This document shows, piece by piece, positions 3,660 to 50,255 of a stretch of 50,255 nt of DNA. Under the pieces are notes generated by a model that had not been told where the DNA came from, made no database searches, and worked only from the letters and a program-made list of their open reading frames with translations. Source of the DNA: Chloroflexi bacterium RBG_16_56_11. Lineage in GTDB: Bacteria; Chloroflexota; Dehalococcoidia; Dehalococcoidales; RBG-16-60-22. Position numbers and translations under genes: made by a program. Position 1 is the first letter of the stretch, and each line of letters begins with the position of its first letter. Location: the NCBI GenBank assembly GCA_001796865.1, contig MGNQ01000019.1:4472-54726 (forward strand). The letters run 5' to 3'.

Positions 3660-3790
3660 AACCCTTATCCGCTCGCACCCTTCGACAAGCTCACTTCGTG
3701 GTGACTCAGTGGAACCAGGGCGAGCGGAGATTATACACCGCTCATGGTGAGACCTCGGCGTGAGCTCGGTCGAACGCCTGTCGAACCATC
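3660..3790. repeat. Composite intergenic palindromic repeat (the 'cccttcgacaagctca' module plus the 'catggtgagacctcggcgtgagctcggtcgaacgcctgtcgaaccat' module)
   Basis: A 9-bp inverted repeat, tccgctcgc (3668-3676) / gcgagcgga (3720-3728), is present. The 52-nt block 3738-3789 recurs at 23240-23291 with one mismatch. The ccttcgacaRgctca module recurs at 5051-5086. Confidence 0.8.
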
Positions 3791-4471: not shown

Positions 4472-5035
4472 TTGAAAGTCCTGGGCATCATGGGCAGCCC
4501 GCGGCTCAAGGGCAACACCGACCTTCTCCTCGACGAGGCCCTAAAGGGGGCGGCGAGCCGGGGGGCGGAAGTCGAGAAGGTCATCGTGGACAGGCTGGGC
4601 ATCGCCCCGTGCAAGGAATATTACGCCTGCCTGAAGGACGGCAACTGCATCATCCGGGACGACATGGATGACCTTTACAGGAAGATTCTCGAAGCCGACG
4701 CCATCATCGTCGCCACGCCGATATTTTTCTACACGGTCAGCGCCCAGCTCCTGCTGGTCATCAGCCGCTGCCAGGCGCTCTGGGCGCGTCGCTATGTCCT
4801 GAAGAACCTGAAGACACCATTGAAAAGAGGGGCTTTCATCGCCGTGGGGGCGACCCGGGGAGCGAAGCTTTTCGATGGCCCCAGGCTCACAGCGAAATAT
4901 TTTTTCCAGGCCATCAACACTGAGTATACCGCGGAGCTATTGATAAGAGGCGTCGATAAGAAGGGTGAAATCAAGCAAAACCCTACTGCCCTGGCCGACG
5001 CTTATGAGCTGGGGAAAAAGCTGGCCGGCCCCTAG
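4472..5035 (+). CDS. Flavodoxin-fold NAD(P)H-dependent FMN reductase / iron-sulfur flavoprotein-like protein
   Basis: TTG start at 4472 with GAGGGAGG upstream. The product LKVLGIMGSPRLKGNT...ADAIIVATPIFFYTVSAQ is typical of the FMN_red/flavodoxin_2 family. The upstream part of ORF 4370.. overlaps the tautomerase and is rejected. Confidence 0.7.
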   Translation: MKVLGIMGSPRLKGNTDLLLDEALKGAASRGAEVEKVIVDRLGIAPCKEYYACLKDGNCIIRDDMDDLYRKILEADAIIVATPIFFYTVSAQLLLVISRCQALWARRYVLKNLKTPLKRGAFIAVGATRGAKLFDGPRLTAKYFFQAINTEYTAELLIRGVDKKGEIKQNPTALADAYELGKKLAGP

Positions 5036-9898: not shown

Positions 9899-10041
9899 CG
9901 GCCACCGGCGAGTGAGCTAGCAACTCAGGCCGGACATTACGTATCCGTCCGCGGCGTTGCTTCAGAGTATCCGGCGATAGCAGCGCTGGTAATGACACGG
10001 GAGACCGTTATAAAATCAGCGAGGAGAAAGGAACCGGGGAG

Positions 10042-11466
10042 ATGGCTGGCATTCGATCCATCGGTGTTTACCTGCCGATATACAGGTTACCCCGCGAAGA
10101 GATAGCCAGGGCATGGGCGGGAAGGAGCATGGCCGGCACTAAAGCCGTGGCCGGCTATGACGAGGACGCCGTGACCATGGCAGCGGCGACCACGCTGGAA
10201 TGCCTGGCCAGGCGCGGAGACAAAGCTGACGGCCTTTTCCTGGCGACGACCACCGCTCCGTACAAGGAGAAGCAGTCCGCGGCAATTATCGCCAGCGTTA
10301 CCGACCTTCCCGAGGCGTGCCATACCGCCGACTTCACCGACTCGCTCAGGTCGACGACGATAGCCATAAAAGCCGCCATCGAGGCGGTCAAGGCCGGCTC
10401 GGCGAAAAACGTGATTGTGGCGGCATCCGACTGCCGTCCCGCCGCCGCCAAAGGTGCGCTGGAACTGGCCCTGGGCGATGGCGCGGCCGCGGTGATGATA
10501 GGCTCGGAAGACGTCATCGCCGAGGTTGAGGGCAGCTATTCGATATTCAACGACTTTACCGACTACTGGCGGACGGCTGACGATACGTTTGTCCGCACCA
10601 CCGAAGGGCGTTTCATCGACGAGGTCGGCTACCTCCCCGCAATGCAGTCGGCCGTTTCCGGCCTGCTGAAAAAATACAAGCTCGCGCTGGCAGACTTTAC
10701 CAGAGTGGTCTATTATGCCAGCGACACCCGCCAGCACGCCGCCCTGGCCCGACGTCTCAAGCTCGACAAGGCGCAGGTGCAGGACCCCCTCTATAACGAA
10801 ATCGGCAACACCGGGACGGCAGCGGCACTCCTCATGCTCACCGCGGCTCTGGAAAAGGCCAGACCCGGCGACCGTATTCTCTTCGCCGGCTACGGCGACG
10901 GTTGCGATTGTTTTATCCTCCGCATCACCGATGAAATCAAGAAAGTCCAGAATAAACCGCCTATCTCACCAAAGCTGTCCGGAAAAATTAACATTAGCTA
11001 CGGGCAGTACCTTACCTGGCGCAATCTCATCCCCGCCGAAGCCTCGACACTGCCGGAGCGCCCGCCCATCTCCCTGCCGGGGCGCTGGCGGGAGCGGCGG
11101 GCGATTGCCGCCCTCTACGGGGCCAGGTGCAAAAAGTGCGGCACCCCCCAGATTTCGCAGATAGGGCAGGCCCCGCGGGTGTGCGTCCAGTGCCAGGCCA
11201 AAGACGAGTTCGAGCCATATAAGTTTTCCGATAAAAAAGGGAAGCTGTTCAGCTACGCCATCGACCAGCTCCAGCCGACCCTCAATCCGCCCGGCGTTAA
11301 CGGGGTCGTCGACTTCGAGGGGGGAGGGCGGCTGATATGCGAGTTGACCGACTGCGAGATTGACAAAGTGGCAGTGGGCATGCCATTGGAGATGACCTTC
11401 CGGAAGATGTTTTCCAGCCGGGGCATCAACAACTATTTCTGGAAGGCTAAGCCAGTCTCTGAATAA
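10042..11466 (+). CDS. HMG-CoA synthase/KAS-III-like thiolase-fold domain fused to a C-terminal DUF35-type zinc-ribbon/OB-fold domain
   Basis: The N-terminus IGVYLPIYRLPREEIARAWAG...GYDEDAVTMAAAT resembles the HMGCS family. The C-terminus carries CKKCGTPQ...CVQCQ (a four-Cys ribbon) followed by an OB-like segment, KGKLFSYAIDQ...GMPLEMTFRK. Confidence 0.75.
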   Translation: MAGIRSIGVYLPIYRLPREEIARAWAGRSMAGTKAVAGYDEDAVTMAAATTLECLARRGDKADGLFLATTTAPYKEKQSAAIIASVTDLPEACHTADFTDSLRSTTIAIKAAIEAVKAGSAKNVIVAASDCRPAAAKGALELALGDGAAAVMIGSEDVIAEVEGSYSIFNDFTDYWRTADDTFVRTTEGRFIDEVGYLPAMQSAVSGLLKKYKLALADFTRVVYYASDTRQHAALARRLKLDKAQVQDPLYNEIGNTGTAAALLMLTAALEKARPGDRILFAGYGDGCDCFILRITDEIKKVQNKPPISPKLSGKINISYGQYLTWRNLIPAEASTLPERPPISLPGRWRERRAIAALYGARCKKCGTPQISQIGQAPRVCVQCQAKDEFEPYKFSDKKGKLFSYAIDQLQPTLNPPGVNGVVDFEGGGRLICELTDCEIDKVAVGMPLEMTFRKMFSSRGINNYFWKAKPVSE

Positions 11467-11473
11467 TACATTA

Positions 11474-11500
11474 TGTCATTCCAGCCTTCGCTGGAATCCA
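11474..11500. repeat. Short hairpin repeat 'gtcattccagccttcgctggaatcc' immediately after the stop codon (possible terminator)
   Basis: 8-bp stem attccagc / gctggaat with the loop cttc. No downstream T-run. Confidence 0.5.
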
Positions 11501-11518
11501 GCGGGTAAGAGGAGGGGG

Positions 11519-11596
11519 GTCATTGCGAGCGTAGCGAAGCAATCCGCTACCCGTGAAAACGGATTGTTTCGGCATTCCATGCCTCGCCATGACAAC
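11519..11596. repeat. Palindromic intergenic repeat, 'gtcattgcgag' family (copy 2, degenerate right arm)
   Basis: gtcattgcgagcgtagcgaagcaatccgct...ggattgtttcggcattccatgcctcgccatgac. Confidence 0.8.
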
Positions 11597-11615
11597 TTGC
11601 TTTAGGAGGCCAATC

Positions 11616-12806
11616 ATGGACGGCATTAAGGATAAAGTCGCTATCGTGGGCATGGGCTGCACGAAGTTCGGGGAGCGCTGGGACAAAGGCGTGGAAGACC
11701 TCATCGTCGAGGCCGCCTACGAGGCCTTCGAAGACGCGGGAATCGGGCCAAAAGACGTCCAGGCCGCCTGGATAGGAACGGTCTTTTCCGGCCTCAGCGC
11801 TATCACGCTATCGCCGCTACAGCTGCAGTACATACCCATGACCCGCGTCGAGAACATGTGCGCCACCGGGTCGGAGGCGCTGAGGGCGGCGAGCTACGCC
11901 GTGGCCGCCGGCGTCTGCGATATCGCCCTGGCCGTGGGCGTGGAGAAGCTCAAAGACTCCGGTGCCACCGGCGTCAAGGGACCGAGCGTCGTCGGAGATA
12001 ACCAGGACGGCAGCTCGGGCATCGGGCCGGGCTACAGCGCCCCGGCCTCCTTCGCTTATATGGCGACCCGCTATTTCCACGAATACAATCTCAAGCCCGA
12101 AGAGGGGAAAAGACTGCTGGCGCAGATCGCTGTCAAGAACCACCACAACGGCAGCCTCAACCCCAAGGCCCATTTCCAGAACGAGCTGACCATCGAGCAG
12201 GTGGTCAACGCCCCGATTATCGCCTGGCCCCTGGGCCTTTTCGACTGTTGCGGCGTCAGCGACGGCGCCGCCGTGGCCGTCGTCACCCGTGCCGACATAG
12301 CGAAAAGTTTTCGCAAGGACCCTATCTATATCAAGGCTATGCAGATAAACGTCGGGGCTAGACAAGGCGCGATGAGGCAGGACTACGACTTCGTCCACAT
12401 CGAGGAGAACGTACTCGGCTCCCGCAAGGCCTACGCCGAGGCCGGCGTGAAAAACCCGCGCCAGGAGATAAGCCTGGCCGAGGTGCACGACTGTTTCAGC
12501 ATCCACGAGATGATTGTCTACGAAGACCTTGGGTTCAGTCCGCGGGGCCGGGCGCGTGATGACATCGAGGCCGGGACGTTCACCCTCAAGGGCGACCTGC
12601 CGGTGAATACCGACGGCGGCCTGAAGTGCTTCGGGCACCCGCTGGGGGCGAGCGGGCTGAGGATGATGTACGAGGTCTATAAGCAGCTCCAGGGCAAGGC
12701 CGGGCCGCGGCAGGTGAAAAACCCGCGCCTGGGACTGACCCATAACCTGGGCGGCAACGCCGGGACGGGCATTTGCAGCTGCTTCATCGTGGGCAACGAG
12801 AAGTAA
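11616..12806 (+). CDS. SCP-x/nonspecific lipid-transfer-type thiolase (acetyl-CoA acetyltransferase-like)
   Basis: ATG at 11616 after TAGGAGG. Contains KVAIVGMGCTKFGE, the catalytic-Cys context NMCATGS and the C-terminal GHPLGASG motif. Confidence 0.85.
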   Translation: MDGIKDKVAIVGMGCTKFGERWDKGVEDLIVEAAYEAFEDAGIGPKDVQAAWIGTVFSGLSAITLSPLQLQYIPMTRVENMCATGSEALRAASYAVAAGVCDIALAVGVEKLKDSGATGVKGPSVVGDNQDGSSGIGPGYSAPASFAYMATRYFHEYNLKPEEGKRLLAQIAVKNHHNGSLNPKAHFQNELTIEQVVNAPIIAWPLGLFDCCGVSDGAAVAVVTRADIAKSFRKDPIYIKAMQINVGARQGAMRQDYDFVHIEENVLGSRKAYAEAGVKNPRQEISLAEVHDCFSIHEMIVYEDLGFSPRGRARDDIEAGTFTLKGDLPVNTDGGLKCFGHPLGASGLRMMYEVYKQLQGKAGPRQVKNPRLGLTHNLGGNAGTGICSCFIVGNEK

Positions 12807-16370: not shown

Positions 16371-16883
16371 TCAGATGAACCTTTCGAAGCGCTCTTTCTT
16401 CGCCTTGCAGATGGGACAGACCTCCGGCGGACCATCCCGGGCGCACAGATAGCCGCAGACGCGGCAGCGCCACACCGGCAGGGGTAGCGATTTCAACGTG
16501 GACCCAGGTTTGGCAACCTCTTTCTTGACTCTCTTTCCACGGGGCAGCCGGCGCTCGGGTATCGAGCCGGCCCTTTTCTTCCCCTCGAACACGTCCCGGG
16601 AGACGTAGAGACTACAATAGCACGCATCGTAGTCGGTAAGGTCAGGGTCGCGATAGTCGCAGGGGCAGATGATGTCCAGGTCTTCGTCCTTGTCGCCAGA
16701 GGCCAGGCGGCAGGGGCAGGCCCAGTACCCGTACCTTTTTTCGTTGACGAGCAGGCCCTTGACCAGCTCCCGGGTCATGCCCGCATCAGGATTGAGGTGG
16801 TAGCCGCCGGACTCCGCCTCGGAGTCCAGCCGCCGATACAGCCGCTCGACCTCGTCCGCCGAAACGTCCACGCGGTCGTTCAT
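16371..16883 (-). CDS. Ferredoxin:thioredoxin reductase catalytic-subunit-like domain fused to a C-terminal rubredoxin-type zinc/iron ribbon
   Basis: The spacing CPCRLASG...ICPC...CYC matches the FTR catalytic chain. The C-terminus reads WRCRVCGY...[12 protein letters not shown] 4-nt ATGA overlap links it to the upstream glutaredoxin-like gene. Confidence 0.8.
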
Positions 16884-17164
16884 TTACCGAGGGCCTTCCT
16901 GATTTCTTCTTCCCGGAACCCGACGATGCACAGTTTGCCGTCGATTACCATCGTGGGGAAATTGCACTCCGGATTGAACTTCTTGACTACCTTCATGGCT
17001 TCTTCCTGCTCCGCGCCGCGCAGCAGGTCGACGTCCGTATAATCATATTCCACGCTCATAACATTGAGGAGCTCCTTGGTCTTTTTACACCAACCGCAGG
17101 TGCTCAGGGCGTAAAGTACTACTTTTCTCCCCTTTTTGTTGCCGGCGACATGTTTCATGGTCAT
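16880..17164 (-). CDS. Glutaredoxin/thioredoxin-fold protein (CGWC active site)
   Basis: Contains [19 protein letters not shown] and the NFPTMVIDG motif. Confidence 0.8.
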
Positions 17165-20873: not shown

Positions 20874-21875
20874 TTGACACAGGCTAAAACAAAGTCAGGT
20901 GCGCTGGAATGGCTGCTGGAGCGGGAAAATATCGGCGTGAGATACCTCGCCATGCGCGACTTGTTGAAAGCGGACGCCGGCGAACTCCTCCCGGTTAAAA
21001 AAGCCGCCCATGAAAAAGGCCCGATAGCCGCCATCCTGGCAAAAATGCACGAAGAAGGGTGGTGGGAACAGGCCGGGGCCGGCTATTATCCCAAGTACAC
21101 CGGGACAGTGTGGTCGGTTATTTCACTGGCAGAGCTTGGCGCCTCTCTGGAAATTGACGCGCGTATCGCTACCGCCTGTTCCTATGTCCTGGCACATAAC
21201 CTCACCGGAGACGGTCATTTCACGGTCAATGGCCTGCCGTCTGGAACAGCGGACTGCCTGCAAGGCAACCTCTGTGAATCGCTGCTCAATCTCGACTGTA
21301 TTGACCCGCGACTGGACAACGCCTTCGAATGGATGGCCAGGAGCGTCACCGGGGAAGGCGTGGCTCCGATGACAGAGAAGACGGCCCCGCGGCGTTATTA
21401 CGCCGGAAAGTGCGGGCCGAACTTCGCCTGCGGCTCAAACAATAAGCTGCCGTGCGGCTGGGGAGCGGTGAAAGTGATGCTGGCATTCAGCAGGCTGCCC
21501 GTGAACAAGCGGACACCCCTGATAGGTCGAGCTATCGAGGCAGGGGTTGATTTTCTCTTCAGCCGGGACCCGGCCAGGGCGGACTATCCCAGCGGTTACA
21601 GCGCCAAACCGAGCGGCAACTGGTGGAAATTCGGCTTCCCCAATTTTTATGTTTCTGATATCCTGCAAATCGCCGAAGCCCTCGTTGGATTAGGCTACGG
21701 GCACGACCCGCGCCTGGCCGGTTGCCTTGCCCTTATACGTGAAAAGCAGGACAGCGAGGGGCGCTGGTCTCTGGAGTATGATTATACAGGCAAGACCTGG
21801 GTAGATTTTGGCTTGAAAAAACAGCCTAACAAATGGGTAACGCTACGGGCGATGCGTGTGCTGACGGCGCCCTGA
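20874..21875 (+). CDS. Alpha/alpha-toroid (prenyltransferase/terpene-cyclase-repeat-like) protein, function unknown
   Basis: TTG start 10 nt after GGGAGGT. It is a paralog of 47058..48167, sharing WLLE, ...RY.A.RD.LG, FAC...LPC.WGA.KVM and KWVTLRA.RVL. The fold assignment is from memory and tentative. Confidence 0.5.
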   Translation: MTQAKTKSGALEWLLERENIGVRYLAMRDLLKADAGELLPVKKAAHEKGPIAAILAKMHEEGWWEQAGAGYYPKYTGTVWSVISLAELGASLEIDARIATACSYVLAHNLTGDGHFTVNGLPSGTADCLQGNLCESLLNLDCIDPRLDNAFEWMARSVTGEGVAPMTEKTAPRRYYAGKCGPNFACGSNNKLPCGWGAVKVMLAFSRLPVNKRTPLIGRAIEAGVDFLFSRDPARADYPSGYSAKPSGNWWKFGFPNFYVSDILQIAEALVGLGYGHDPRLAGCLALIREKQDSEGRWSLEYDYTGKTWVDFGLKKQPNKWVTLRAMRVLTAP

Positions 21876-32220: not shown

Positions 32221-32249
32221 TTGCAAAAAGAGTTATTTTGATATATAAT
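32221..32249 (+). promoter_or_regulatory. Sigma70-like promoter for the zinc-ribbon gene
   Basis: TTGCAA (32221-32226), a 17-nt spacer, then TATAAT (32244-32249). Confidence 0.5.
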
Positions 32250-32314
32250 ATGTTTATAGTTCCAGTTTAGGTTAATACCGACTTCTTGAAATCCCCATAA
32301 TTCCTATCAAGTAT

Positions 32315-32361
32315 TGGATGACCCGAGCTCTAACTAAATTGCGAAGAGAGGAGGTCATCCG
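32315..32361 (+). promoter_or_regulatory. Leader hairpin occluding part of the Shine-Dalgarno sequence of the zinc-ribbon gene
   Basis: Stem tggatgacc / ggtcatccg. The 3' arm overlaps GAGGAGG (32348-32354) and ends 1 nt before the ATG at 32362. Confidence 0.5.
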
Positions 32362-32688
32362 ATGAGTTTCGAGGACAAGACCTTGGAGTGTTCCGATTGC
32401 AGTACTGCGTTCACCTTTAGCGCTGGCGAGCAGGAGGAGTTTCGGTCCAGGGGTTATTCCAACCAGCCCAAACGCTGCCCCGAATGCCGTCAGGCAAGGA
32501 AATCAGAACGCTACGGAAATACTGCTGGTAGCTATGGAAATAGCGGCTCTACCTATTCACCCGGGCGTCAGATGTTCCCGGCCGTATGCTCCGATTGCGG
32601 CAAGTCAACTTCTGTGCCTTTTGAACCCCGCCAGGGCCGGCCGGTCTATTGCAGCGATTGCTATCGAAAAGTAAAAACGAGCAGGTAA
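32362..32688 (+). CDS. Zinc-ribbon protein with two CxxC...CxxC modules (zf-trcl-like)
   Basis: Contains LECSDCSTAFTFSAGEQEEF...RCPECRQARK and CSDCGKSTSVPFEP..GRPVYCSDCY. Confidence 0.75.
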   Translation: MSFEDKTLECSDCSTAFTFSAGEQEEFRSRGYSNQPKRCPECRQARKSERYGNTAGSYGNSGSTYSPGRQMFPAVCSDCGKSTSVPFEPRQGRPVYCSDCYRKVKTSR

Positions 32689-33160: not shown

Positions 33161-33295
33161 ACCATGGCTTATCAGAGAGTACCCGCCAAGGTTACGATGG
33201 TTTTATGGCTGGCATTTTCAGGGTTGTGCAATCGGGTACACGACCATGCGACATCGCCGGGATAAAACCGCCTTTTTCTTAAACGGAGAATCAAT

Positions 33296-34831
33296 ATGAA
33301 GATACTTCTTGTTTATCCTCGGTATCCCGACACCTTCTGGAGCTTCAGACACGCACTGAAGTTCTTATCCAAGAAGGCTTCCTTTCCACCTCTGGGACTC
33401 CTGACGGTCGCCGCCATGCTTCCCGCCGGGTGGGAGAAAAAGCTGGTAGATTTAAATGTATGCGCCTTGAACGATGAAGATATAGAATGGGCTGATTACG
33501 TCTTCCTCAGCTCCATGGTAGTGCAGAAGACTTCGGCGGGCGAAGTAATAGAAAGGTGTCGCAACCTAAATACCAGCGTGGTGGCCGGTGGCCCGCTTTT
33601 CACGACCGGATACGAAGAGTTTGAGGGAGTGGACCACTTTGTGCTGGGTGAAGCCGAAGTCACGCTTCCGCCCTTTTTAGCTGACCTAGCCAAAGGTCAG
33701 CCCCGGCACATCTACTCATCAGACGAACGGCCGGACATAAGCCAAACGCCCGCCCCGCTGTGGTCGCTTATCAACATGAAGCACTACTCGGCGATGAGTC
33801 TCCAGTACTCACGCGGTTGCCCTTTCGACTGCGAATTTTGCGATATTACTCTGTTAAATGGCCATGAACCCCGGACCAAAAGCCGGCAACAGATGGTCGA
33901 TGAGCTGGAGGCACTCTACCGCCGGGGCTGGCGGGGCAGTCTATTTATCGTCGACGACAATTTCATAGGTAATAGGAGAAAATTAAAAACCGAGACCTTA
34001 CCGGCCATGATTCAATGGTCGAGGCAGAAAAAATACCCTTTCGTGTTCTTCACCGAAGCATCTATTAATCTCGCTGATGATGAGGAGTTGATGGACCTCA
34101 TGGCGGAGGCCGGTTTTAACCGGGTCTTTGTCGGCATTGAGACTCCGAATGAAGAAAGTCTGGTGGAATGTAACAAGCAACAAAATAGAAACCGGGACCT
34201 GGCGGCCGCGGTGAAGCTAATTCAGAACCATGGTTTTGAAGTTCAGGGAGGCTTCATCCTCGGATTTGATAGCGACCCGGCCTCCATCTTTAATAAACAA
34301 ATACACTTTATTCAAAAGACTGGAATCGTTACGGCCATGGTCGGTTTGCTCAATGCCCCCAACGGAACAAAACTCTATAAGCGGCTCAAAAAGGAAAACC
34401 GCTTGATCAGAGACATGTCCGGGGATAACACGGATTTTTCCATTAATTTCGTTCCCAAAATGCAATATGAAACTCTCGTGGCCGGATATAAGCACGTCCT
34501 CGACACAATCTATTCGCCCCGCCATTATTATGAGCGGGTCGTTACCTTCCTGAAGGAATACCGGCCGCGCAAGACGGCCGGGATATCGCAGCTACGGTTC
34601 AATCATATCACCGGTTTTATTAAATCAATGTGGTTCTTAGGTATCTGGAATAAAGGGAGGCGGTATTACTGGAGACTCCTTATTTCGACTCTCCTGAAAC
34701 GTCCACGTCATTTCCCGTTATCAATTAGTCTCTCAGTCTCAGGGTTCCACTTCCGACGGGTGGCCGAGGGTTATAACAGGGCTGTTCTCGCCCTCCGCCA
34801 TCAAGGCGCCAATAAAGCCCTGCCCCTTTAG
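33296..34831 (+). CDS. B12-binding domain radical SAM protein (class B, with a DUF4070-like C-terminal region)
   Basis: N-terminus KILLVYPRYPDTFWSF...PPLGLLTVAAML (B12-binding-like). Radical SAM motif CPFDCEFC. Confidence 0.85.
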   Translation: MKILLVYPRYPDTFWSFRHALKFLSKKASFPPLGLLTVAAMLPAGWEKKLVDLNVCALNDEDIEWADYVFLSSMVVQKTSAGEVIERCRNLNTSVVAGGPLFTTGYEEFEGVDHFVLGEAEVTLPPFLADLAKGQPRHIYSSDERPDISQTPAPLWSLINMKHYSAMSLQYSRGCPFDCEFCDITLLNGHEPRTKSRQQMVDELEALYRRGWRGSLFIVDDNFIGNRRKLKTETLPAMIQWSRQKKYPFVFFTEASINLADDEELMDLMAEAGFNRVFVGIETPNEESLVECNKQQNRNRDLAAAVKLIQNHGFEVQGGFILGFDSDPASIFNKQIHFIQKTGIVTAMVGLLNAPNGTKLYKRLKKENRLIRDMSGDNTDFSINFVPKMQYETLVAGYKHVLDTIYSPRHYYERVVTFLKEYRPRKTAGISQLRFNHITGFIKSMWFLGIWNKGRRYYWRLLISTLLKRPRHFPLSISLSVSGFHFRRVAEGYNRAVLALRHQGANKALPL

Positions 34832-44629: not shown

Positions 44630-45857
44630 TATCCTGACCTACGGGTATCCTGGCCCAGACTGTTGTCCCTTTTCCTATTTCAGACTCAATGCCGCTCGAG
44701 CCGCCCAGAAAACCAATCCGCTCTCTCATGCTGAAAAGACCCCGGCCCCTTCCGCTCTCCTCGACATCCGTGATTTCCTTCACATTGAACCCGTGCCCGT
44801 TATCTTTTATTGTCAGGAGAAATTCATCAGGCCTGTATTCCAGGATAATGCCAGCATTAGTAGCGCTCGAGTGCTGGGCGATATTACCCACCGCCCCTTG
44901 AATAAAGCGGAAAAGAGCGGCTTCAACCTCAACGGGAAACCTCACTGCGATACCCCTGGTTTCCAACGTTACGGTAATCCCCAGCGACTGAAGTCGGGTC
45001 TCAGCGTATTTGCGGGCTGCGGGCACCAATCCCAGTGTATCCAGGAGAGCTGGATGAAGGTTTGATATCAACCTGCTGACCTCTTTGTGCACCTGTACGG
45101 TCAGCGCCTGCACTTTTTTTAAACCCGCGACAAAGTCTTTATCATTTTTATCCGGTATCGCCGCCATTTCTATCAGCGCCTGCAACTGGAGGGCAATCCC
45201 GGAAAGCGATTGGCTGGTCTCGTCATGGAGCTCCCGGGCGATTCTCCTTCTTTCATCCTCCTCGGCCACCAGGTTCTGCCGGGCGAGTTTACGCATTCTT
45301 TCACGGGCTTTCCTTAAACGCTCGTACAATCTGGCGTGTTCAACGGCGATACCAAGCTGGTCGCCGATGGCATAAAGCAGGTGCATGTCGTTTGTGGTGA
45401 ATTTGCGCGGCAGGCGACTGGCTACGTTCAGCACGCCCAGCACTTTGTCCTGGGCGCGGAGCGGCACACAGATAAACGCCTTCAAACCTTCAGCGATGAC
45501 CATTTCGCGGTGGGCTACCCGTGCATCTGAACAGATGTCTTCAAGCAGAACAGCCTTGCCGCTTTTTGCCACGCCGCCGGTAATACCTTCGCCAAGGCTG
45601 AGACGCACCTTTTCCAGGAATTCATTGCTCAAACCGCGGTGGGCGGTACGCAAGAGTTCGCGGGTATTTTCATCGACGAGCAGGATTTCACCGACAGTAC
45701 CATTCATGATATCCAGGGTGCTGTCGAGACCCACGCCAAGAATCGCATCGAGGTTCCATAGCCCGCTCAATGCTGCGGAAATTCGGCTCAATACCAGGAG
45801 CTCGGACTGCTGCCTGTTTATTTTTTCCCGTGTTCGGCGGGGCCTGAGAGTGTTCAT
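44595..45857 (-). CDS. Cytoplasmic GAF-domain sensor histidine kinase (HisKA_3 / HATPase_c)
   Basis: GAF segment: GEGITGGVAKSGKAVLLEDI...VPLRAQDKVLGVLNV. H-box: EEDERRRIARELHDETSQSL. C-terminal G-boxes: DNGHGF and GRGLFSMRERI. No TM helices. Confidence 0.85.
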   Translation of the reverse strand: MNTLRPRRTREKINRQQSELLVLSRISAALSGLWNLDAILGVGLDSTLDIMNGTVGEILLVDENTRELLRTAHRGLSNEFLEKVRLSLGEGITGGVAKSGKAVLLEDICSDARVAHREMVIAEGLKAFICVPLRAQDKVLGVLNVASRLPRKFTTNDMHLLYAIGDQLGIAVEHARLYERLRKARERMRKLARQNLVAEEDERRRIARELHDETSQSLSGIALQLQALIEMAAIPDKNDKDFVAGLKKVQALTVQVHKEVSRLISNLHPALLDTLGLVPAARKYAETRLQSLGITVTLETRGIAVRFPVEVEAALFRFIQGAVGNIAQHSSATNAGIILEYRPDEFLLTIKDNGHGFNVKEITDVEESGRGRGLFSMRERIGFLGGSSGIESEIGKGTTVWARIPVGQDIEYGENKSPGS

Positions 45858-46074
45858 TTCACCAGCTCGCAGTTGACAGGATAAGGAGTGCTAATACGCG
45901 CTGTATAGATTAGATTATAGAAAAATCCGGGACTTGTCAAACTATTGATTAGTACTAGAGCTTTTTACTCCTCAATATATAGGTACTTCAGTGATGTTAT
46001 TTCAATTTGTTCGAAAAACTAACGACTAATTCGAAGAAGGCTTCTATGTCAGGGTGTGGAAAAATCACCTTTGG

Positions 46075-46102
46075 TGGAGCTGAGGTATCAATAGGTAGTA
46101 CT
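46075..46102. repeat. 28-nt island repeat, copy A (tggagctgaggtatcaataggtagtact)
   Basis: Identical to copy B and 26/28 identical to copy C. It is followed by the second shared motif, tacctacgttaagtaacaa, at 46147-46165. Confidence 0.85.
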
Positions 46103-46201
46103 GGTAAGGACTTCGATTTGACTTTTAACCTCAGTATATGAGGACGTACCTACGTTAAGTAACAAGATGCCCGATTGTGTGATGAGTCAGATGTGTTGAA
46201 T

Positions 46202-46654
46202 CTACGTCAAAGCATCCTCATCGTATATGAAAAGCACATCATCTTCATTCGCGACTCTCCCTTTGGTCTTACTATATAAACCCATCGCGGCTCCGTTACC
46301 CTTTTGAGTAGGCACGAACATCTCACGACATCTGTGTTCTCGAGCTATCCGCTTGAGTTCTTCTATGAGTTTGCTGGCTATGCCTTGCCGCCTAAATTCA
46401 TCAAAAACATCAATTGAATAAAGAAACATTTTTGGGAAAGAACTGTTTGGGCTTTGCAGAACATATCCCCAAAGGAAACCGCTCAAATTCCCATCGGTTC
46501 TGGAAACTAGGAATACATTTTCTTCGCCTTCGAAGAAGTGTGTATTAGTTTCTGCAATTCCTCCATTTGCCCGGTCAAATAGATGAGCAAGTGTTTTGTT
46601 GTCAATCTTCCTGACTCTTTCGATTTGTGTTGGCATTTTTCGTCCTTCCAGCAT
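46202..46654 (-). CDS. GNAT family N-acetyltransferase
   Basis: Acetyl-CoA-binding motif FRRQGIASKLIEELKRIARE. The ~150-aa length fits the family. Confidence 0.8.
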   Translation of the reverse strand: MLEGRKMPTQIERVRKIDNKTLAHLFDRANGGIAETNTHFFEGEENVFLVSRTDGNLSGFLWGYVLQSPNSSFPKMFLYSIDVFDEFRRQGIASKLIEELKRIAREHRCREMFVPTQKGNGAAMGLYSKTKGRVANEDDVLFIYDEDALT

Positions 46655-46920
46655 TCTTTTTATGTCGAAATGATACTGTACACTAGCATAAGGTCAAAAC
46701 GATCAAGCCGATAGGGTATGTAGCAGTTCTGCATTGCTTCCCATCGAATAAACCAGCTATGCCAATTAAAATTAGAATCGAATCCACTCATAATTCTTCC
46801 GTCAAGCAAAGGTCTTTGGCAACACAGATTTTATCACAACCAGACAATGTCACATAAATCTTAATTGTTGAGTTTAGAAGCAATTGGAATAAAAATCAAT
46901 TGAAATAGGTGGAAGAATTG

Positions 46921-46992
46921 GGTACTACCTGTTGATACCTTAGGTCGTAGATTTTGAAGCTAAATGGAGCTGAGGTATCAATAGGTAGTACT
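46921..46992. repeat. 28-nt island repeat, copy B, with an inverted partner arm (hairpin element)
   Basis: Left arm: ggtactacctgttgataccttag (46921-46943). It is the reverse complement (about 20/23) of ctgaggtatcaataggtagtact, which lies within 46965-46992. Confidence 0.85.
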
Positions 46993-47057
46993 TTCGAAAT
47001 GGCATTCTCCCTCCATATTTAGTAGAATAGAAACGATCTGGAGAACGCTGAATAGCT

Positions 47058-48167
47058 ATGGTTAATTGGAAAGAAAAACTTAAAGGAAACCCGATACCCT
47101 GGCTGTTAGAAGCGGATGAGACCCAGCCAGCCATCCGCTATTATGCTTTACGTGATATCCTTGGCCGGGATGAGAACGATAAAGAAGTCAAAGCTGCCAA
47201 AGCGGCTATCATGACAAGCGGACCGGTGCCGGTAATCCTGGCGGCGCAGCATCCGGAGGGATATTGGGGAGAACGACCCAGGTACACCGGGACGATGCCG
47301 GCTCTCGTTTACATGGCGCAGTTTGGGGCGGACGGAGCTGACCCGCGCATTCGCGCCGGCTGCGAGATTCTGCTCTCCCGATTCATCGACAGCGGTGGTA
47401 GTCTGCGTGGTCTGTCATTGATAGGCACGCCTTCCGATTTCAACTATTGCGCGGCGGGTATAAATGGGGCGGCTTTGATAGACTTCGGCTGGCTTAACGA
47501 CCAACGCTTGCAGACAGCAATGGAATGGCTGGCACAGACTATTACGGGAGAAGGAGTGGCTGACGCTTCGAACCGTGACACAAACAAACGTCATGAAAAG
47601 TCCAGGAACTCGTCTCCTCCATTCGCCTGTCCACAGCGTAATGCTGATCTGCCATGCGCCTGGGGCGCAATAAAGGTGATGATTGCCCTGAACAAAGTAC
47701 CAACGGCGCAGCGAACCAAGAATATGCAGGAGGCTATCAAACGGGGTGTGGACTTTCTCTTGAGCCACGACCCGGCGGTCGCCGATTACCCCTTTGGCAC
47801 GGGGAACAGGCCCAGCTCGAACTGGTTCAAGTTCTATTATCCTCTCCGCAGCGAAGCCGATGTGCTTCAGAACCTGGAGGTCATGGCAGCACTAGGCCAA
47901 GCCAAGAATCCCAAGTTAGCCAACGCGTTAGATCTGGTCATTAGTAAGCAAAACCAACAAGGACGCTGGCTGCTGGAACGTACCTACAAGGAGTTGGCGG
48001 ACACACAAGAAAAGAAAGTCTTTTATTGGTACCAGAACTCCCTGAGACTTTATATAACCGGCAAGGAGTTGGCGGAGATACAAGAAAAGAAAGGGCAACC
48101 CAGCAAGTGGGTCACCTTAAGAGCGTTGCGGGTATTGAAAGCGGCTTATCCAGAAGAACAGAGTTAA
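47058..48167 (+). CDS. Alpha/alpha-toroid-like protein, paralog of 20874..21875, carrying an internal 25-codon duplication
   Basis: Collinear similarity to 20874..21875. A 32-nt direct repeat at 47987-48018 and 48062-48093 is spaced 75 nt apart, in frame. Confidence 0.55.
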   Translation: MVNWKEKLKGNPIPWLLEADETQPAIRYYALRDILGRDENDKEVKAAKAAIMTSGPVPVILAAQHPEGYWGERPRYTGTMPALVYMAQFGADGADPRIRAGCEILLSRFIDSGGSLRGLSLIGTPSDFNYCAAGINGAALIDFGWLNDQRLQTAMEWLAQTITGEGVADASNRDTNKRHEKSRNSSPPFACPQRNADLPCAWGAIKVMIALNKVPTAQRTKNMQEAIKRGVDFLLSHDPAVADYPFGTGNRPSSNWFKFYYPLRSEADVLQNLEVMAALGQAKNPKLANALDLVISKQNQQGRWLLERTYKELADTQEKKVFYWYQNSLRLYITGKELAEIQEKKGQPSKWVTLRALRVLKAAYPEEQS

Positions 48168-48183
48168 ATATCCGGAAGCTAAG

Positions 48184-48211
48184 TGGAGCTGGGATATCAA
48201 TAGGTAGTACT
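48184..48211. repeat. 28-nt island repeat, copy C (tggagctgggatatcaataggtagtact)
   Basis: Two mismatches to copies A and B. The downstream motif tacctaaccttattcgttaatgagtaacaa (48341-48370) parallels the motif following copy A. Confidence 0.85.
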
Positions 48212-48466
48212 CGCAGGGACTTCAACTTCACCTTTGCTTTCAGGATATAGTGTTGGGAGGACCGTATCTATTAAGGTGGTCGGTACCTGCCCATAGATAG
48301 AACCAGAAATTTCAAATTAGCTGTTGGAATGATATTATGCTACCTAACCTTATTCGTTAATGAGTAACAATCACTCTTTTTGTTGGATTCTGGTTGACGC
48401 CCGATAGAACTTGGCTTAAGATAGTCTTGGGAAATAGCAGCAACAATTCGCGGAAGGAAGGTTCGT

Positions 48467-49123
48467 GTGGCTTCAAAACAGGTATTGCTGTTGGAACAGC
48501 TGCTAATTGAGGATGGCGACTACATACATCCTCGCAACCCGCCGGAAGAGTTCGTCATACAAGCTACTGCCCTGCCGGATGAAGACGCTAAGGCCCTAGC
48601 TGCCAGGCTTTTCATAAAGAGTGAATGGCGCTATGTATGGATGGCTGTGATTATCTTTCAGAAGCACCCAACAGCAAGGACGATGATAGACTGGAAATAC
48701 CTTGAGCCGTTCGGAAACCGGATGGATAGCTGGGGTCTGGTCGATGCCTTCGCGTCTTTGGCAGGACCTGCCTGGAGGGAAGGGCAAATAAGTGATGAGG
48801 CAGTAATGAGCTGGACACACTCTGAAAACCGCTGGTGGCGAAGGGCTGCACTGGTCTGCACGGTGTTTCTCAACCGCAAAATCTTGGGTGGTAGAGGAGA
48901 TACTCCCCGGACATTGGCGGTTTGCGAAGTTCTAGCACGTGATAGGGACGATATGGTCATCAAGGGTTTGTCCTGGGCATTACGGGATTTGAGTAAGCGT
49001 GATCGTGCGGCAGCAGAGAGATTCCTCAAGGAACACGAGGGAGAACTACATGCGAGAGTAAAGCGGGAAGTGCGTAACAAGCTAGAAACCGGAGTTAAAA
49101 ATCCGCGACGTATGAGACGATGA
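48467..49123 (+). CDS. DNA alkylation repair (AlkD-like HEAT-repeat) family protein
   Basis: GTG start after GGAAGGAAGG. Contains WWRRAALVCTVFLN and DDMVIKGLSWALRDLSKRD, typical of the DNA_alkylation family. Confidence 0.7.
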   Translation: MASKQVLLLEQLLIEDGDYIHPRNPPEEFVIQATALPDEDAKALAARLFIKSEWRYVWMAVIIFQKHPTARTMIDWKYLEPFGNRMDSWGLVDAFASLAGPAWREGQISDEAVMSWTHSENRWWRRAALVCTVFLNRKILGGRGDTPRTLAVCEVLARDRDDMVIKGLSWALRDLSKRDRAAAERFLKEHEGELHARVKREVRNKLETGVKNPRRMRR

Positions 49124-49275
49124 TTACGCTCTCACAGAATACTGAACAATCTAGCAGCGCGTCCGAGTAACGCACGGGTTACCGGTAATTCAGGTGGAAA
49201 GTAATGTTGATGGGAAAGGAAAGGTGCGTTTGCAAGGCTACTGGGGGTTTGACGAAAAAATTAGTAATAGAGGCA

Positions 49276-49467
49276 CTATTGTTCCAGCACGATACCCAGG
49301 ACTTCCCGGGTGAGTAGGCCACTCCGGTGGGCACCAAACAGCTTGAGCAGGTTATGACCGGCACAGATGATTTTCCATTCACCGTCGGCCTTGTACTCTC
49401 CCCGTAACAGGAACTGCCTGAAACCTCTTGCCTGCTTTATCTGGCCGAAAACCGGCTCCGGCAGAAT
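49276..49467 (-). pseudogene. C-terminal remnant of an IS1182/IS5-like DDE transposase
   Basis: The minus-strand frame reads ILPEPVFGQIKQARGFRQFLLRGEYKADGEWKIICAGHNLLKLFGAHRSG...*, which is the conserved extreme C-terminus of that transposase family. No upstream catalytic domain is present. Confidence 0.65.
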
Positions 49468-49623
49468 ACATCCTTGTTGTTAATCCTGAAGCAAACAAAG
49501 ATATTACCGAGACGCATCCTATCCTTGTAGAATTTCCTGTCTACTGATGAGACTGCGTCACGATAGGTGTCAAATCTAAACGCATTCTGGATAATTTCTT
49601 TGCTTGTATTTACCAGTTCTATT

Positions 49624-49953
49624 TTATGGCCTTCGGGACGACACAACTTCCTTAGATCCCGCAAACCGAGGCTTGGGTCGCAAAGTAATCTCCAACTCAG
49701 CATCGAGGGCGTCGGCCACTTTCTTCACAGTGGAAAGAGATGGCAGCGAGCCGCCGCTCTCCAGCCTGGCGATACTTTCCTGTTTGGTATTCAGCAGCTT
49801 CGCTAACTGCTCCTGGGTTAGTCCCTTAGCCAGTCGTAGTCGGATCAAGGCAGATGCCAGCTTATATTCAGGCTCAAGCGACTCATACTCCTGCCTGAAC
49901 TCAGGGTCTTTCAATAGTTTCTTTTTGTGTTCCTTCCAATTCATATCACTCAC
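49624..49953 (-). CDS. XRE-family HTH antitoxin (HigA-like)
   Basis: HTH segment LRLAKGLTQEQLAKLLNTKQESIARLESGG. A 4-nt overlap links it to the upstream toxin gene. Confidence 0.8.
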   Translation of the reverse strand: MSDMNWKEHKKKLLKDPEFRQEYESLEPEYKLASALIRLRLAKGLTQEQLAKLLNTKQESIARLESGGSLPSLSTVKKVADALDAELEITLRPKPRFAGSKEVVSSRRP

Positions 49954-50255
49954 CTCCTCCTGGATAAGTAATCATCGAGTCTACTTTCCGCCGTCTTTAT
50001 GTCTGCTCTTGGCACTGGCCCTGTCTTCTTGTTAAGTCCGTGTAGAAGAACGAAGGTATGCTCAGTGTATAAGAAGTAGATAATGCGATACCGATTTTTG
50101 CCATGTCGAACTCTCAACTCCCAGAATTGTTTTTCAAGATGCCTGGCATAAGGCATACCGAGGCTGACCCCGAATTCCTCGAGCAAGTCGAGAGTTCTGG
50201 CAATCCTGGCTCTTGATTTAGCGTCCAGCGAGTCAATGAACTCTTCTACCGGAGA
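49950..50255 (-). CDS. RelE/ParE-superfamily toxin (HigB / phage Gp49-like); 5' end beyond the window
   Basis: The frame is open to the window end (SPVEEFIDSLDAKSRARIARTLDLLEEFG...). Contains WELRVRHGKNRYRIIYFLYTEHTFVLLHGLNKK. Confidence 0.8.
   Translation of the reverse strand, partial: SPVEEFIDSLDAKSRARIARTLDLLEEFGVSLGMPYARHLEKQFWELRVRHGKNRYRIIYFLYTEHTFVLLHGLNKKTGPVPRADIKTAESRLDDYLSRRR

Follow-up and report, generated by a model that had tools for sequence, protein, structure and literature searches.

Why does the same short sequence recur between single accessory genes at one end of a bacterial contig? The question is raised by a 50,255-nt stretch of the genome of Chloroflexi bacterium RBG_16_56_11 (contig MGNQ01000019.1; hereafter the window). 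A first-pass annotation of the window had described a 28-nt repeat in three neighbouring spacers. It had proposed an array of gene cassettes comparable to an integron or to another site-specific recombination system. Here we analyse this repeat. It is composite. Very probably it joins one half (P') of the attachment site (att) used by a large serine recombinase (LSR) to the final ~20 codons of the gene for that enzyme. The best overall explanation, and in our view a probable one, is that each repeat is one junction of an LSR insertion that targets the 3' end of a tRNA-Ala gene. The earlier cassette idea is largely right as anatomy and wrong in kind: recombination sites appear to delimit single-gene units, and such units recur elsewhere, yet the mechanism is not integron-like. 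The coding signal of the repeat, its link to tRNA and an inverted fourth copy had all been overlooked.

Repeat copies in the window

The 28-mer TGGAGCTGAGGTATCAATAGGTAGTACT lies exactly where it had been reported, at 46075, 46965 and 48184 (zero, zero and 2 mismatches; Table 1), and has matches in 0 of 100 dinucleotide-preserving shuffles. The drop in GC content that had been noticed after position 45857 is equally real, with 0.40 over 46-47 kb compared to ~0.52-0.63 across most of the window. The conserved unit is longer than 28 nt, as copies A and C can be aligned over 66 nt. A fourth copy, D, is inverted and lies 20 nt from copy B. The two are 88% complementary and form inverted repeat I2 with arms of 25 nt. 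A profile of the unit finds copy D with nhmmer (E=5.5e-8). The same profile fails to detect the degenerate copy suspected at 45971-45991, even at E<=10. A second motif had been described behind copies A and C. It is present at 46147-46165 and 48341-48370, but it occurs in none of the other loci that we fetched and therefore lies outside the conserved element.

A short, highly conserved, intergenic sequence that sometimes forms inverted pairs and has a tRNA-derived segment inside could be a dispersed repeat without cassette behaviour (a miniature inverted-repeat transposable element or a repetitive extragenic palindrome), or a tRNA-like RNA processing signal. The first-pass annotation had itself named scatter over random intergenic sites as the counter-case. 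Instead, all four copies in 50 kb are confined to 2.2 kb, and units keep a fixed orientation to tRNA-Ala. Selection on the flank acts on codons and not on structure, there is no Rfam or tRNA match, and single units have no significant fold. We find this reading barely credible. A transfer-messenger RNA (tmRNA) or tRNA gene, suggested by a conserved open reading frame (ORF) without a start and by T-loop-like strings, was rejected with ARAGORN and Rfam empty at the units.

A coding signal in the unit

A degenerate 22-nt pattern found 22 loci in species-representative genomes, almost all of them metagenome-assembled genomes of Dehalococcoidia, and 91 further loci in metagenomes. The sample contains 136 unit copies on other contigs in ~113 fetched loci, mostly from Dehalococcoidia (L numbers denote loci, P numbers database proteins).

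The window copies share one reading frame, which ends in ..GGAEVSIGSTGKDFDLTFNLSI in A, ..NGAEVSIGSTFEMAFSLHI in B and ..SGAGISIGSTRRDFNFTFAFRI in C, each followed by a stop codon at the corresponding position. Copy B carries a 9-nt in-frame deletion relative to A and C. Among 123 unique units, the stop follows GGA after 21 codons in 71 and after 18 codons in 19; all three stop codons are used. The intact frame and its stop codon are kept in 90 of the 123 unit tails. At the tail residues K, D, F, F and L, variation is almost confined to the third codon position. The per-position entropy is 0.11/0/0.89 bits for F13 and 0/0.11/0.99 bits for F17. The remaining two frames are closed after 1-6 codons. 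Judged by this codon pattern, the ~40 nt after the 28-mer are under selection at the protein level. The core GGTATCAATAGGTAG is nearly invariant (few single substitutions) in secondary copies that were outside the selection by the search pattern, while the codons that flank it vary. It shows almost no synonymous change, a sign of constraint at the DNA level. We also considered an RNA structure, a pairing of CTGAGGT with ACCTCAG in unit A. The pairing is lost in other copies, whose changes follow codons, and we rejected it.

Are the units independent small-peptide genes, such as a leader peptide, an upstream ORF or the precursor of a ribosomally synthesised and post-translationally modified peptide (RiPP), duplicated before accessory genes? 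Protein-level selection and a fixed stop codon agree with this. Unit A, part of an ORF of 44 codons, has both an ATG and a GA-rich stretch upstream; its lead-in is kept in L057, and in L001a the triplets ATG-AAA-AAT immediately precede the unit. However, 17 of the 28 copies examined first have no in-frame ATG, GTG or TTG in the interval from the preceding stop to the start of conservation, and in some a stop stands immediately ahead of the conserved part. Unit C lacks a start codon within 27 codons upstream. Conservation begins abruptly at GGTGGAG, with unrelated sequences upstream, and the distance and orientation to the neighbouring gene vary. Moreover, recombinase genes end in frame with this very peptide, as described below. 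RiPP precursors and leader peptides were dropped for lack of start codons, and a peptide gene of any kind is very improbable.

The lead-in of unit A is shared with one other locus. Its final ~50 nt are kept in L057, and identity is 80% over 115 nt. Unit A and the L057 unit (~120-270) have in common a ~20-codon lead-in, ..NSxKASxxxCGKIxFxGA.., with start codons upstream. The lead-in of unit A shows no recognisable derivation from a recombinase. The ORF of unit A and its counterpart in L057 may be free-standing ORFs of 44-50 aa that end in the recombinase tail.

The 3' end of tRNA-Ala in every unit

The 28-mer opens with 11 nt, TGGAGCTGAGG, that match the 3' end of tRNA-Ala in reverse complement; every unit has such an 11-nt copy of CCTCAGCTCCA. 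In unit A this segment covers 46075-46085 and is followed by an invariant arm of 17 nt. The similarity extends beyond the tRNA in some copies: the 9-nt motif GAAGCTAAR, which immediately precedes copies B and C, corresponds in reverse complement to the sequence that trails tRNA-Ala in L011 and L017. The form found ahead of unit B stands upstream of 17 of 158 unit cores.

The tRNA gene itself is present at many loci. A tRNA occurs in 25 of the fetched loci. In 21 of them there is a tRNA-Ala (UGC, GGC or CGC), and it is convergent with the unit in every case. Rfam and tRNA scans of the fetched loci gave genuine tRNA-Ala genes and one cobalamin riboswitch only, and nothing at the units.

A few units stand head to head with a sense string that resembles a tRNA 3' end (AGTTTGAATCCCCTTAGCTA joined to GAGCTGAGG), namely in L043 1144-1215(-), L016 2450-2520 and L053 ~4500-4541. 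An AGCT palindrome occupies the centre of these joins, and recombination in either orientation is conceivable.

The tail of a serine recombinase

What protein does the tail belong to? Clustering of 665 ORFs from 114 sources singled out one family that recurs and that combines Resolvase, Recombinase and Zn_ribbon_recom domains. LSR genes with Resolvase, Recombinase and zinc-ribbon domains occur in L045, L058, L075 and P0124/L115. Next to 20 units, the large ORFs encode housekeeping proteins (GlmS, ClpB, P-type ATPase, Lnt and others) or transposases of the IS91 or IS3 type.

An LSR gene runs in frame through the unit in L046 (..EVLSIEQSGGAEVSIGSTFEIDFSLVE and ..KREVLSIEQSGGAEVSIGSTFEIDFSLVE, each followed by a stop), L071 and L020. 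Across the junction the peptide reads …VLPIDTFGGAE-VSIGST…F.L.F.L.. and then stops. Dozens of database ORFs are C-terminal fragments of the recombinase (..AFLRSFIKRI..YTIPxP..VLPIDTFGG). They continue in one of two ways, either as AEVSIG(S/R)T with the F.x.F.L tail or as antisense tRNA-Ala (..FGGAEGIRTPDLLRAREALSQLSYSP; AEGIRTPDLLRAREALSQLSYSP). P0032 ends in ..SGAEVMIGSTFEMVFSLHI and has the tail type of window unit B (FEMVFSLHI vs FEMAFSLHI in the window). Where a full-length LSR is integrated at tRNA-Ala, its sequence reaches …GGAE and from there continues antisense through the tRNA. P0124 (545 aa), for example, overlaps tRNA-Ala(GGC) in L115 (gene 10001-11638, tRNA c[11554-11629]). Because inverted arms encode VLPIDT and VSIGST around a centre made of the tRNA-Ala end, we read the unit as the putative P' half of an attP within the recombinase gene.

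Two arrangements of recombinase genes differ from this pattern. Within ~20 nt after the unit in L058 1031-2703, L075 82-1733 and L002 4628-4728 lies a full-length serine recombinase, encoded on the other strand. The 3' end of this gene (..VLPIVPDGPLY with stop, ..VLPFVHDGPPYGTRTF..) runs antisense through the 3' fragment of another tRNA-like sequence (GGTTCGAGTCCCGTAAGGTGGA), and the recombinase may be a sister enzyme with another target, nested against units of the tRNA-Ala type. L115 1-15330 contains an inverted pair of tRNA-Ala(GGC) genes, 3706-3781(+) and 11554-11629(-), each abutting the 3' end of a recombinase gene. One recombinase is intact and one fragmented, and both sides carry duplicated pieces of fpg and polA. 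Either the stretch between two att junctions has been inverted or the assembly is at fault.

Proposed origin of the repeat

We propose that attP lies within the 3' end of the LSR's own gene and is made of a P arm, a centre and a P' arm. The P arm GTNCTACCTATTGATACC encodes VLPIDT. The centre, ..GGTGGAGCTGAGG, encodes FGGAE and is at the same time the reverse complement of the tRNA-Ala end CCTCAGCTCCA(CCA). The P' arm GTATCAATAGGTAGTAC encodes VSIGST, followed by ~9-12 codons of the pattern F-x-hydrophobic-x-F-x-L-x-x and a stop. A crossover in the shared centre would split the gene. The recombinase body would be fused to antisense tRNA, and the P' arm would stay at the far end of the element together with the orphaned last ~20 codons. 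This remainder would be the unit, present three times in the window. Repeated insertion at one type of site would stack elements into an array. Each element of the window carries one cargo gene (GNAT, toroid or AlkD-like) and no recombinase, and is most likely mobilised in trans by an enzyme encoded elsewhere in the genome or community.

The crossover would be expected within GGAGCTGAGG, and a palindromic GC or AGCT centre would account for head-to-head junctions. The junction of a circular single cassette would read (cassette end)-TGGAGCTGAGG-GTATCAATAGG. The orphan tail is conserved at the codon level; therefore the C-terminus of the attP form would be the selected one, and a recombinase made from the circular form may need it.

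Several observations weigh against this proposal. The window contains no tRNA or tmRNA according to ARAGORN and no Rfam match, and adjacency to tRNA-Ala is not seen anywhere in its 50,255 nt. It also contains neither a recombinase gene nor a detectable remnant of one, in agreement with the earlier remark that no integrase is present. Because recombinase, remnant and tRNA-Ala are all missing from the window, the link of its units to them rests on homologous loci. An exhaustive profile search of 1.84 billion cluster representatives returned no full-length LSR with the tail. The recombinase ORFs found with the tail are all truncated, with no more than ~250 aa, and an intact gene in the circular (attP) form therefore has to be postulated. 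The full-length LSRs of L058 and L075 lie on the strand opposite to the units and end in another tRNA-like sequence, which makes the pairing of enzyme and site tentative. In many cassettes the P-side arm is degenerate or truncated, while a canonical LSR reaction needs two half-sites. Finally, one class of palindromes, with spacers of 33-36 nt, neither fits a standard LSR site of 40-50 bp nor has a consistent reading frame.

Three smaller results concern the same questions. A search of the window for a tRNA-Ala body or a recombinase remnant gave matches of 11-12 nt inside units only. At 33505-33516(+), inside an ORF, 12 nt agree exactly with the end of tRNA-Ala (3' side), probably by chance (BLAST E ~0.16). 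For the C-terminal region with tail, AlphaFold gives a mean predicted local distance difference test score (pLDDT) of 50, at which the predicted tail strands are unreliable.

Palindromes, folding and integrons

Could the repeat be an unusual attC site, recombined as a folded single strand by a tyrosine recombinase related to IntI? The cargo would suit an integron: single genes for GNAT and DUF1697 proteins, an immunity protein, a toxin-antitoxin pair and methyltransferases. The D/B pair also makes a strong hairpin, with a single-stranded DNA fold of -18.5 kcal/mol (z=-7.9). For units A and C, however, the fold is no stronger than in shuffled sequences (z=-1.6 and -0.3). The boundary is TGGAG and not a GTTRRRY core, and the first-pass annotation was right to set the repeats apart from canonical attC sites. 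The ORFs scanned beside arrays include neither IntI nor any other tyrosine recombinase, apart from one Phage_integrase fragment of 99 aa in L115. The sites are instead anchored on tRNA-Ala and continuous with a serine recombinase gene. We attach almost no weight to an integron-type array.

The palindromes fall into classes with spacers of 14 nt, 20-22 nt and 33-36 nt. The D/B palindrome belongs to the last class, which occurs in ~11 other loci. This spacer directly follows real tRNA-Ala genes and may for that reason be element-derived rather than native tRNA flank.

Single-gene cassettes in several contexts

For 24 pairs of neighbouring units on the same strand, the median spacing is 926 bp, and the interval is nearly always filled by one ORF or one toxin-antitoxin pair. 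Elsewhere the cargo includes Imm5-like, DUF5701, DUF1697, HAD, cupin, beta-lactamase-family, MFS, RRM and methyltransferase genes.

Two cassettes recur often enough to show their boundaries. The toroid gene is preceded by a unit in six contexts (window, L004, L021, L039, L043 and L049). In five of these (window, L004, L021, L043 and L049), which are unrelated, the left boundary of the cassette is TGGAG and the DNA upstream is unrelated. Homology between the window and L004, L021, L043 and L049 starts exactly at 46965-46967. The second example is a methyltransferase cassette of 1352 bp, which contains no recombinase and is 80-89% identical in six contexts. It lies downstream of tRNA-Ala(UGC) in L062 and L006 and of tRNA-Ala(GGC) in L022 and L067; it is part of an array in L045 and also occurs in L016. 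Its tRNA-proximal end directly abuts ..CTCCA of the tRNA or of the preceding unit in L062, L022, L067 and L045, while the left end in L006 is a variant.

These cassettes bear on an alternative that shares the att-site origin. The window could be dead debris, in which larger islands have lost their recombinase and most of their cargo and the units are immobile. The truncation of all tail-bearing recombinase genes fits this alternative, as do the often degenerate P-side arms, the degenerate copy D and the insertion sequence (IS) stub within the window array. So does P0131 (247 aa), a methyltransferase fused in frame to the last ~65 recombinase codons and the tail (..LLRSFIKRIVINGD..VLPIVTPGGAGISIGRNFALTFSISI), clearly the outcome of a deletion that brought cargo and a recombinase 3' end together. 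On the other hand, random deletion is not expected to leave such tight spacing, with one ORF per interval, in many genomes. Neither would it be expected to leave the 1352-bp cassette with the same boundaries at genes for different tRNA-Ala isoacceptors and in an array, or an intact frame and stop in most unit tails. We consider the debris alternative unlikely, although it is the most serious of the rivals.

The same recombinase-less cassettes at different tRNA-Ala genes therefore suggest movement in trans and make independent decay unlikely. The LSR family would then act on cassettes that do not encode it. From these sequence comparisons, we regard mobilisation in trans as about evenly balanced between true and false. 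A broader version of the junction model is somewhat more doubtful and is put forward tentatively: an integron-like LSR cassette system in Dehalococcoidia that captures and shuffles genes in trans at tRNA-Ala. In such a system the half-site would serve as a spare, exon-like 3' fragment of the recombinase, and the selected C-terminus would exist only on the circle or beside a resident cassette. If true, this would be a built-in switch that ties the form of the recombinase to its state of integration, and a bacterial serine counterpart of the 'suicidal' integrases of archaea.

Comparison with known systems

The closest precedent is found in the same host class. The ssrA islands of Dehalococcoides depend on DsiB, an LSR of ~520-550 aa, and target the 3' end of a tRNA-like gene, the tmRNA, whose acceptor arm mimics tRNA-Ala (McMurdie et al. 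2011, PMC3146451). As in our arrays, direct repeats of the target's 3' end stand between tandem islands, and the recombinase gene dsiB overlaps its own att site at the 3' end, with the stop codon outside the island (PMC3146451). By this analogy the window array is best classed as an att system of a serine recombinase directed at tRNA-Ala, with a design akin to that of the ssrA islands. Hence it is not wholly the undescribed system that had been suspected. The likeness is one of design, and the target is ssrA there and tRNA-Ala here. The ssrA islands hold multiple genes, and 16 of the islands carry a six-gene integration module, whereas here the units are ~0.7-1.6 kb long, carry a single gene and mostly lack a recombinase. 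McMurdie et al. found the ends of DsiB divergent and doubted their function (PMC3146451); here the displaced 3' fragment is conserved at the protein level. For the islands of vinyl-chloride respiration, the question whether the recombinase is complete only on the circle or beside a neighbouring island was already raised in 2011 (PMC3146451), and the conserved orphan tail described here has a bearing on it.

Integrons (IntI/attC) are alike in that they form arrays of mostly single accessory genes with a conserved bounding site and similar cargo, and in that cassettes without a recombinase occur in several contexts. They differ in the enzyme, which is a tyrosine recombinase, and in their attI/intI anchor; here we find a serine recombinase, a tRNA anchor and mixed gene orientation. 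Most boundaries here have neither attC cores nor a hairpin, and the site carries a coding fragment of the recombinase.

The staphylococcal cassette chromosome islands (SCCmec and pseudo-SCC, with CcrAB) also use LSRs and accrete in tandem at one chromosomal site. Some of these elements lack a recombinase and are bounded only by repeats that include the terminal codons of a gene. However, the codons are those of the host target rlmH/orfX, the elements measure kilobases to tens of kilobases, and the target is not a tRNA. Part of the basis for this parallel is the comparison of DsiB with CcrB made for the ssrA islands (PMC3146451).

In the 'suicidal' integrases of the SSV type the att site lies inside the integrase gene and matches a tRNA, so that integration partitions the gene and the gene is whole only on the circle (PMC8371274). 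In contrast to our system, these are tyrosine recombinases and are described as exclusive to archaea (PMC8371274). Their split removes a large part of the protein, whereas here the last ~20 residues of a bacterial serine recombinase would be exchanged. The tycheposons of Prochlorococcus integrate at few tRNA genes, newer insertions push older ones outward, and partial tRNAs and degenerate elements lie scattered (bioRxiv 10.1101/2020.12.28.424599). They differ by mostly using tyrosine recombinases (910/937) and by having integration and replication modules. Single-gene cassettes that lack a recombinase and carry a fragment of its gene are not described in that paper.

Two features thus appear to be new in the literature that we searched. 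The elements are reduced to single-gene cassettes of integron size, and the repeat includes part of the recombinase gene, which is under selection as coding sequence. If the cassettes move in trans, this would be a second route to exchangeable single-gene arrays, in which a serine recombinase and a tRNA anchor replace IntI and attC. The hosts belong to an abundant subsurface lineage that is hard to culture and whose routes of gene exchange are poorly known. The core GGTATCAATAGGTAG together with the reverse-complemented tRNA-Ala end offers a simple marker for flexible-genome cargo in Dehalococcoidia metagenomes. The recombinase, attP and the tRNA-Ala attB form a defined candidate system for site-specific integration.

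Other features of the window

The features of the array are listed in Table 1. Domain matches agree with the gene content given in the first-pass annotation (GNAT acetyltransferase, second toroid copy, AlkD-like protein, IS stub and HigBA-like pair).

Table 1. Features of the repeat region, in window coordinates.
Feature	Coordinates	Strand	Description
Lead-in upstream of unit A	46007-46074	+	Open-frame start of the 44-codon ORF 46007-46141 (ORF list)
Unit A	46075-46141	+	28-mer 46075-46102, then coding tail ..GAEVSIGSTGKDFDLTFNLSI; stop TGA 46139-46141
Cassette 1 cargo, GNAT acetyltransferase	46202-46654	- (opposite to units)	Pfam Acetyltransf_1, E=3.4e-14
Copy D, inverted degenerate unit	46886-46946	-	P-type arm 46922-46946; + strand reading encodes VLPVDT, like the recombinase C-terminus
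Junction motif GAAGCTAAA	46956-46964	+	Reverse complement of TTTAGCTTC, found 3' of real tRNA-Ala genes in L011 and L017
Unit B	46965-47022	+	28-mer 46965-46992, short-type tail ..GAEVSIGSTFEMAFSLHI; stop TAG 47020-47022; left boundary of toroid cassette
Cassette 2 cargo, prenyltransferase/squalene-cyclase-like 'toroid' protein	47058-48167	+	Pfam SQHop_cyclase_C, weak, below cut-off
Junction motif GAAGCTAAG	48175-48183	+	Equals the short motif upstream of unit B (repeat family D1)
Unit C	48184-48250	+	28-mer 48184-48211 (2 mismatches), tail ..GAGISIGSTRRDFNFTFAFRI; stop TAG 48248-48250
Cassette 3 cargo, AlkD-like DNA alkylation repair protein	48467-49123	+	Pfam DNA_alkylation, E=8e-26
IS transposase C-terminal stub	~49284-49478	-	Pfam DDE_Tnp_1_6, profile positions 81-124 of 125, E=4.4e-9
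HigB(Gp49)/helix-turn-helix (HTH) toxin-antitoxin pair	49624-50186	-	Domain matches; window ends at 50255

There is no P-type arm ahead of unit C because the stop codon of the toroid gene lies only 7 nt upstream of GAAGCTAAG, 16 nt before the unit. The toroid protein has a paralogue in the window at 20874-21875. Near its 3' end the toroid gene of cassette 2 contains an in-frame tandem duplication of 75 nt or 25 codons (47982-48131, repeat D3), whose 37-nt cores at 47982-48018 and 48057-48093 are 89% identical. The L004 homologue has no such duplication.

To the right of the third cassette, the IS stub probably interrupts or terminates the array. The toxin-antitoxin pair may be a further cassette, by analogy with L011, in which two units enclose a similar HigB-like/HTH pair.

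Exact copies of the unit also occur in bins labelled Pirellulales, Altiarchaeales, Aminicenantes (on a 4.3-Mb chromosome) and Christensenella (L002, L012/L079, L016 and L019). These are either mis-binned contigs of Dehalococcoidia or cases of transfer across phyla. In L016 a transposase of the IS91 family lies 0.5 kb from the unit.

Outside the array, the window has lower-GC patches at 16375-17164, 20929-21864, 32221-32519 and 33278-34517, which share 64-72% DNA identity with genes of unit-bearing loci. Their counterparts are a gene of L005, the toroid and zinc-finger cassettes of L039, and L050. No unit was detected in the window beside any of these patches. They may be older, eroded insertions.

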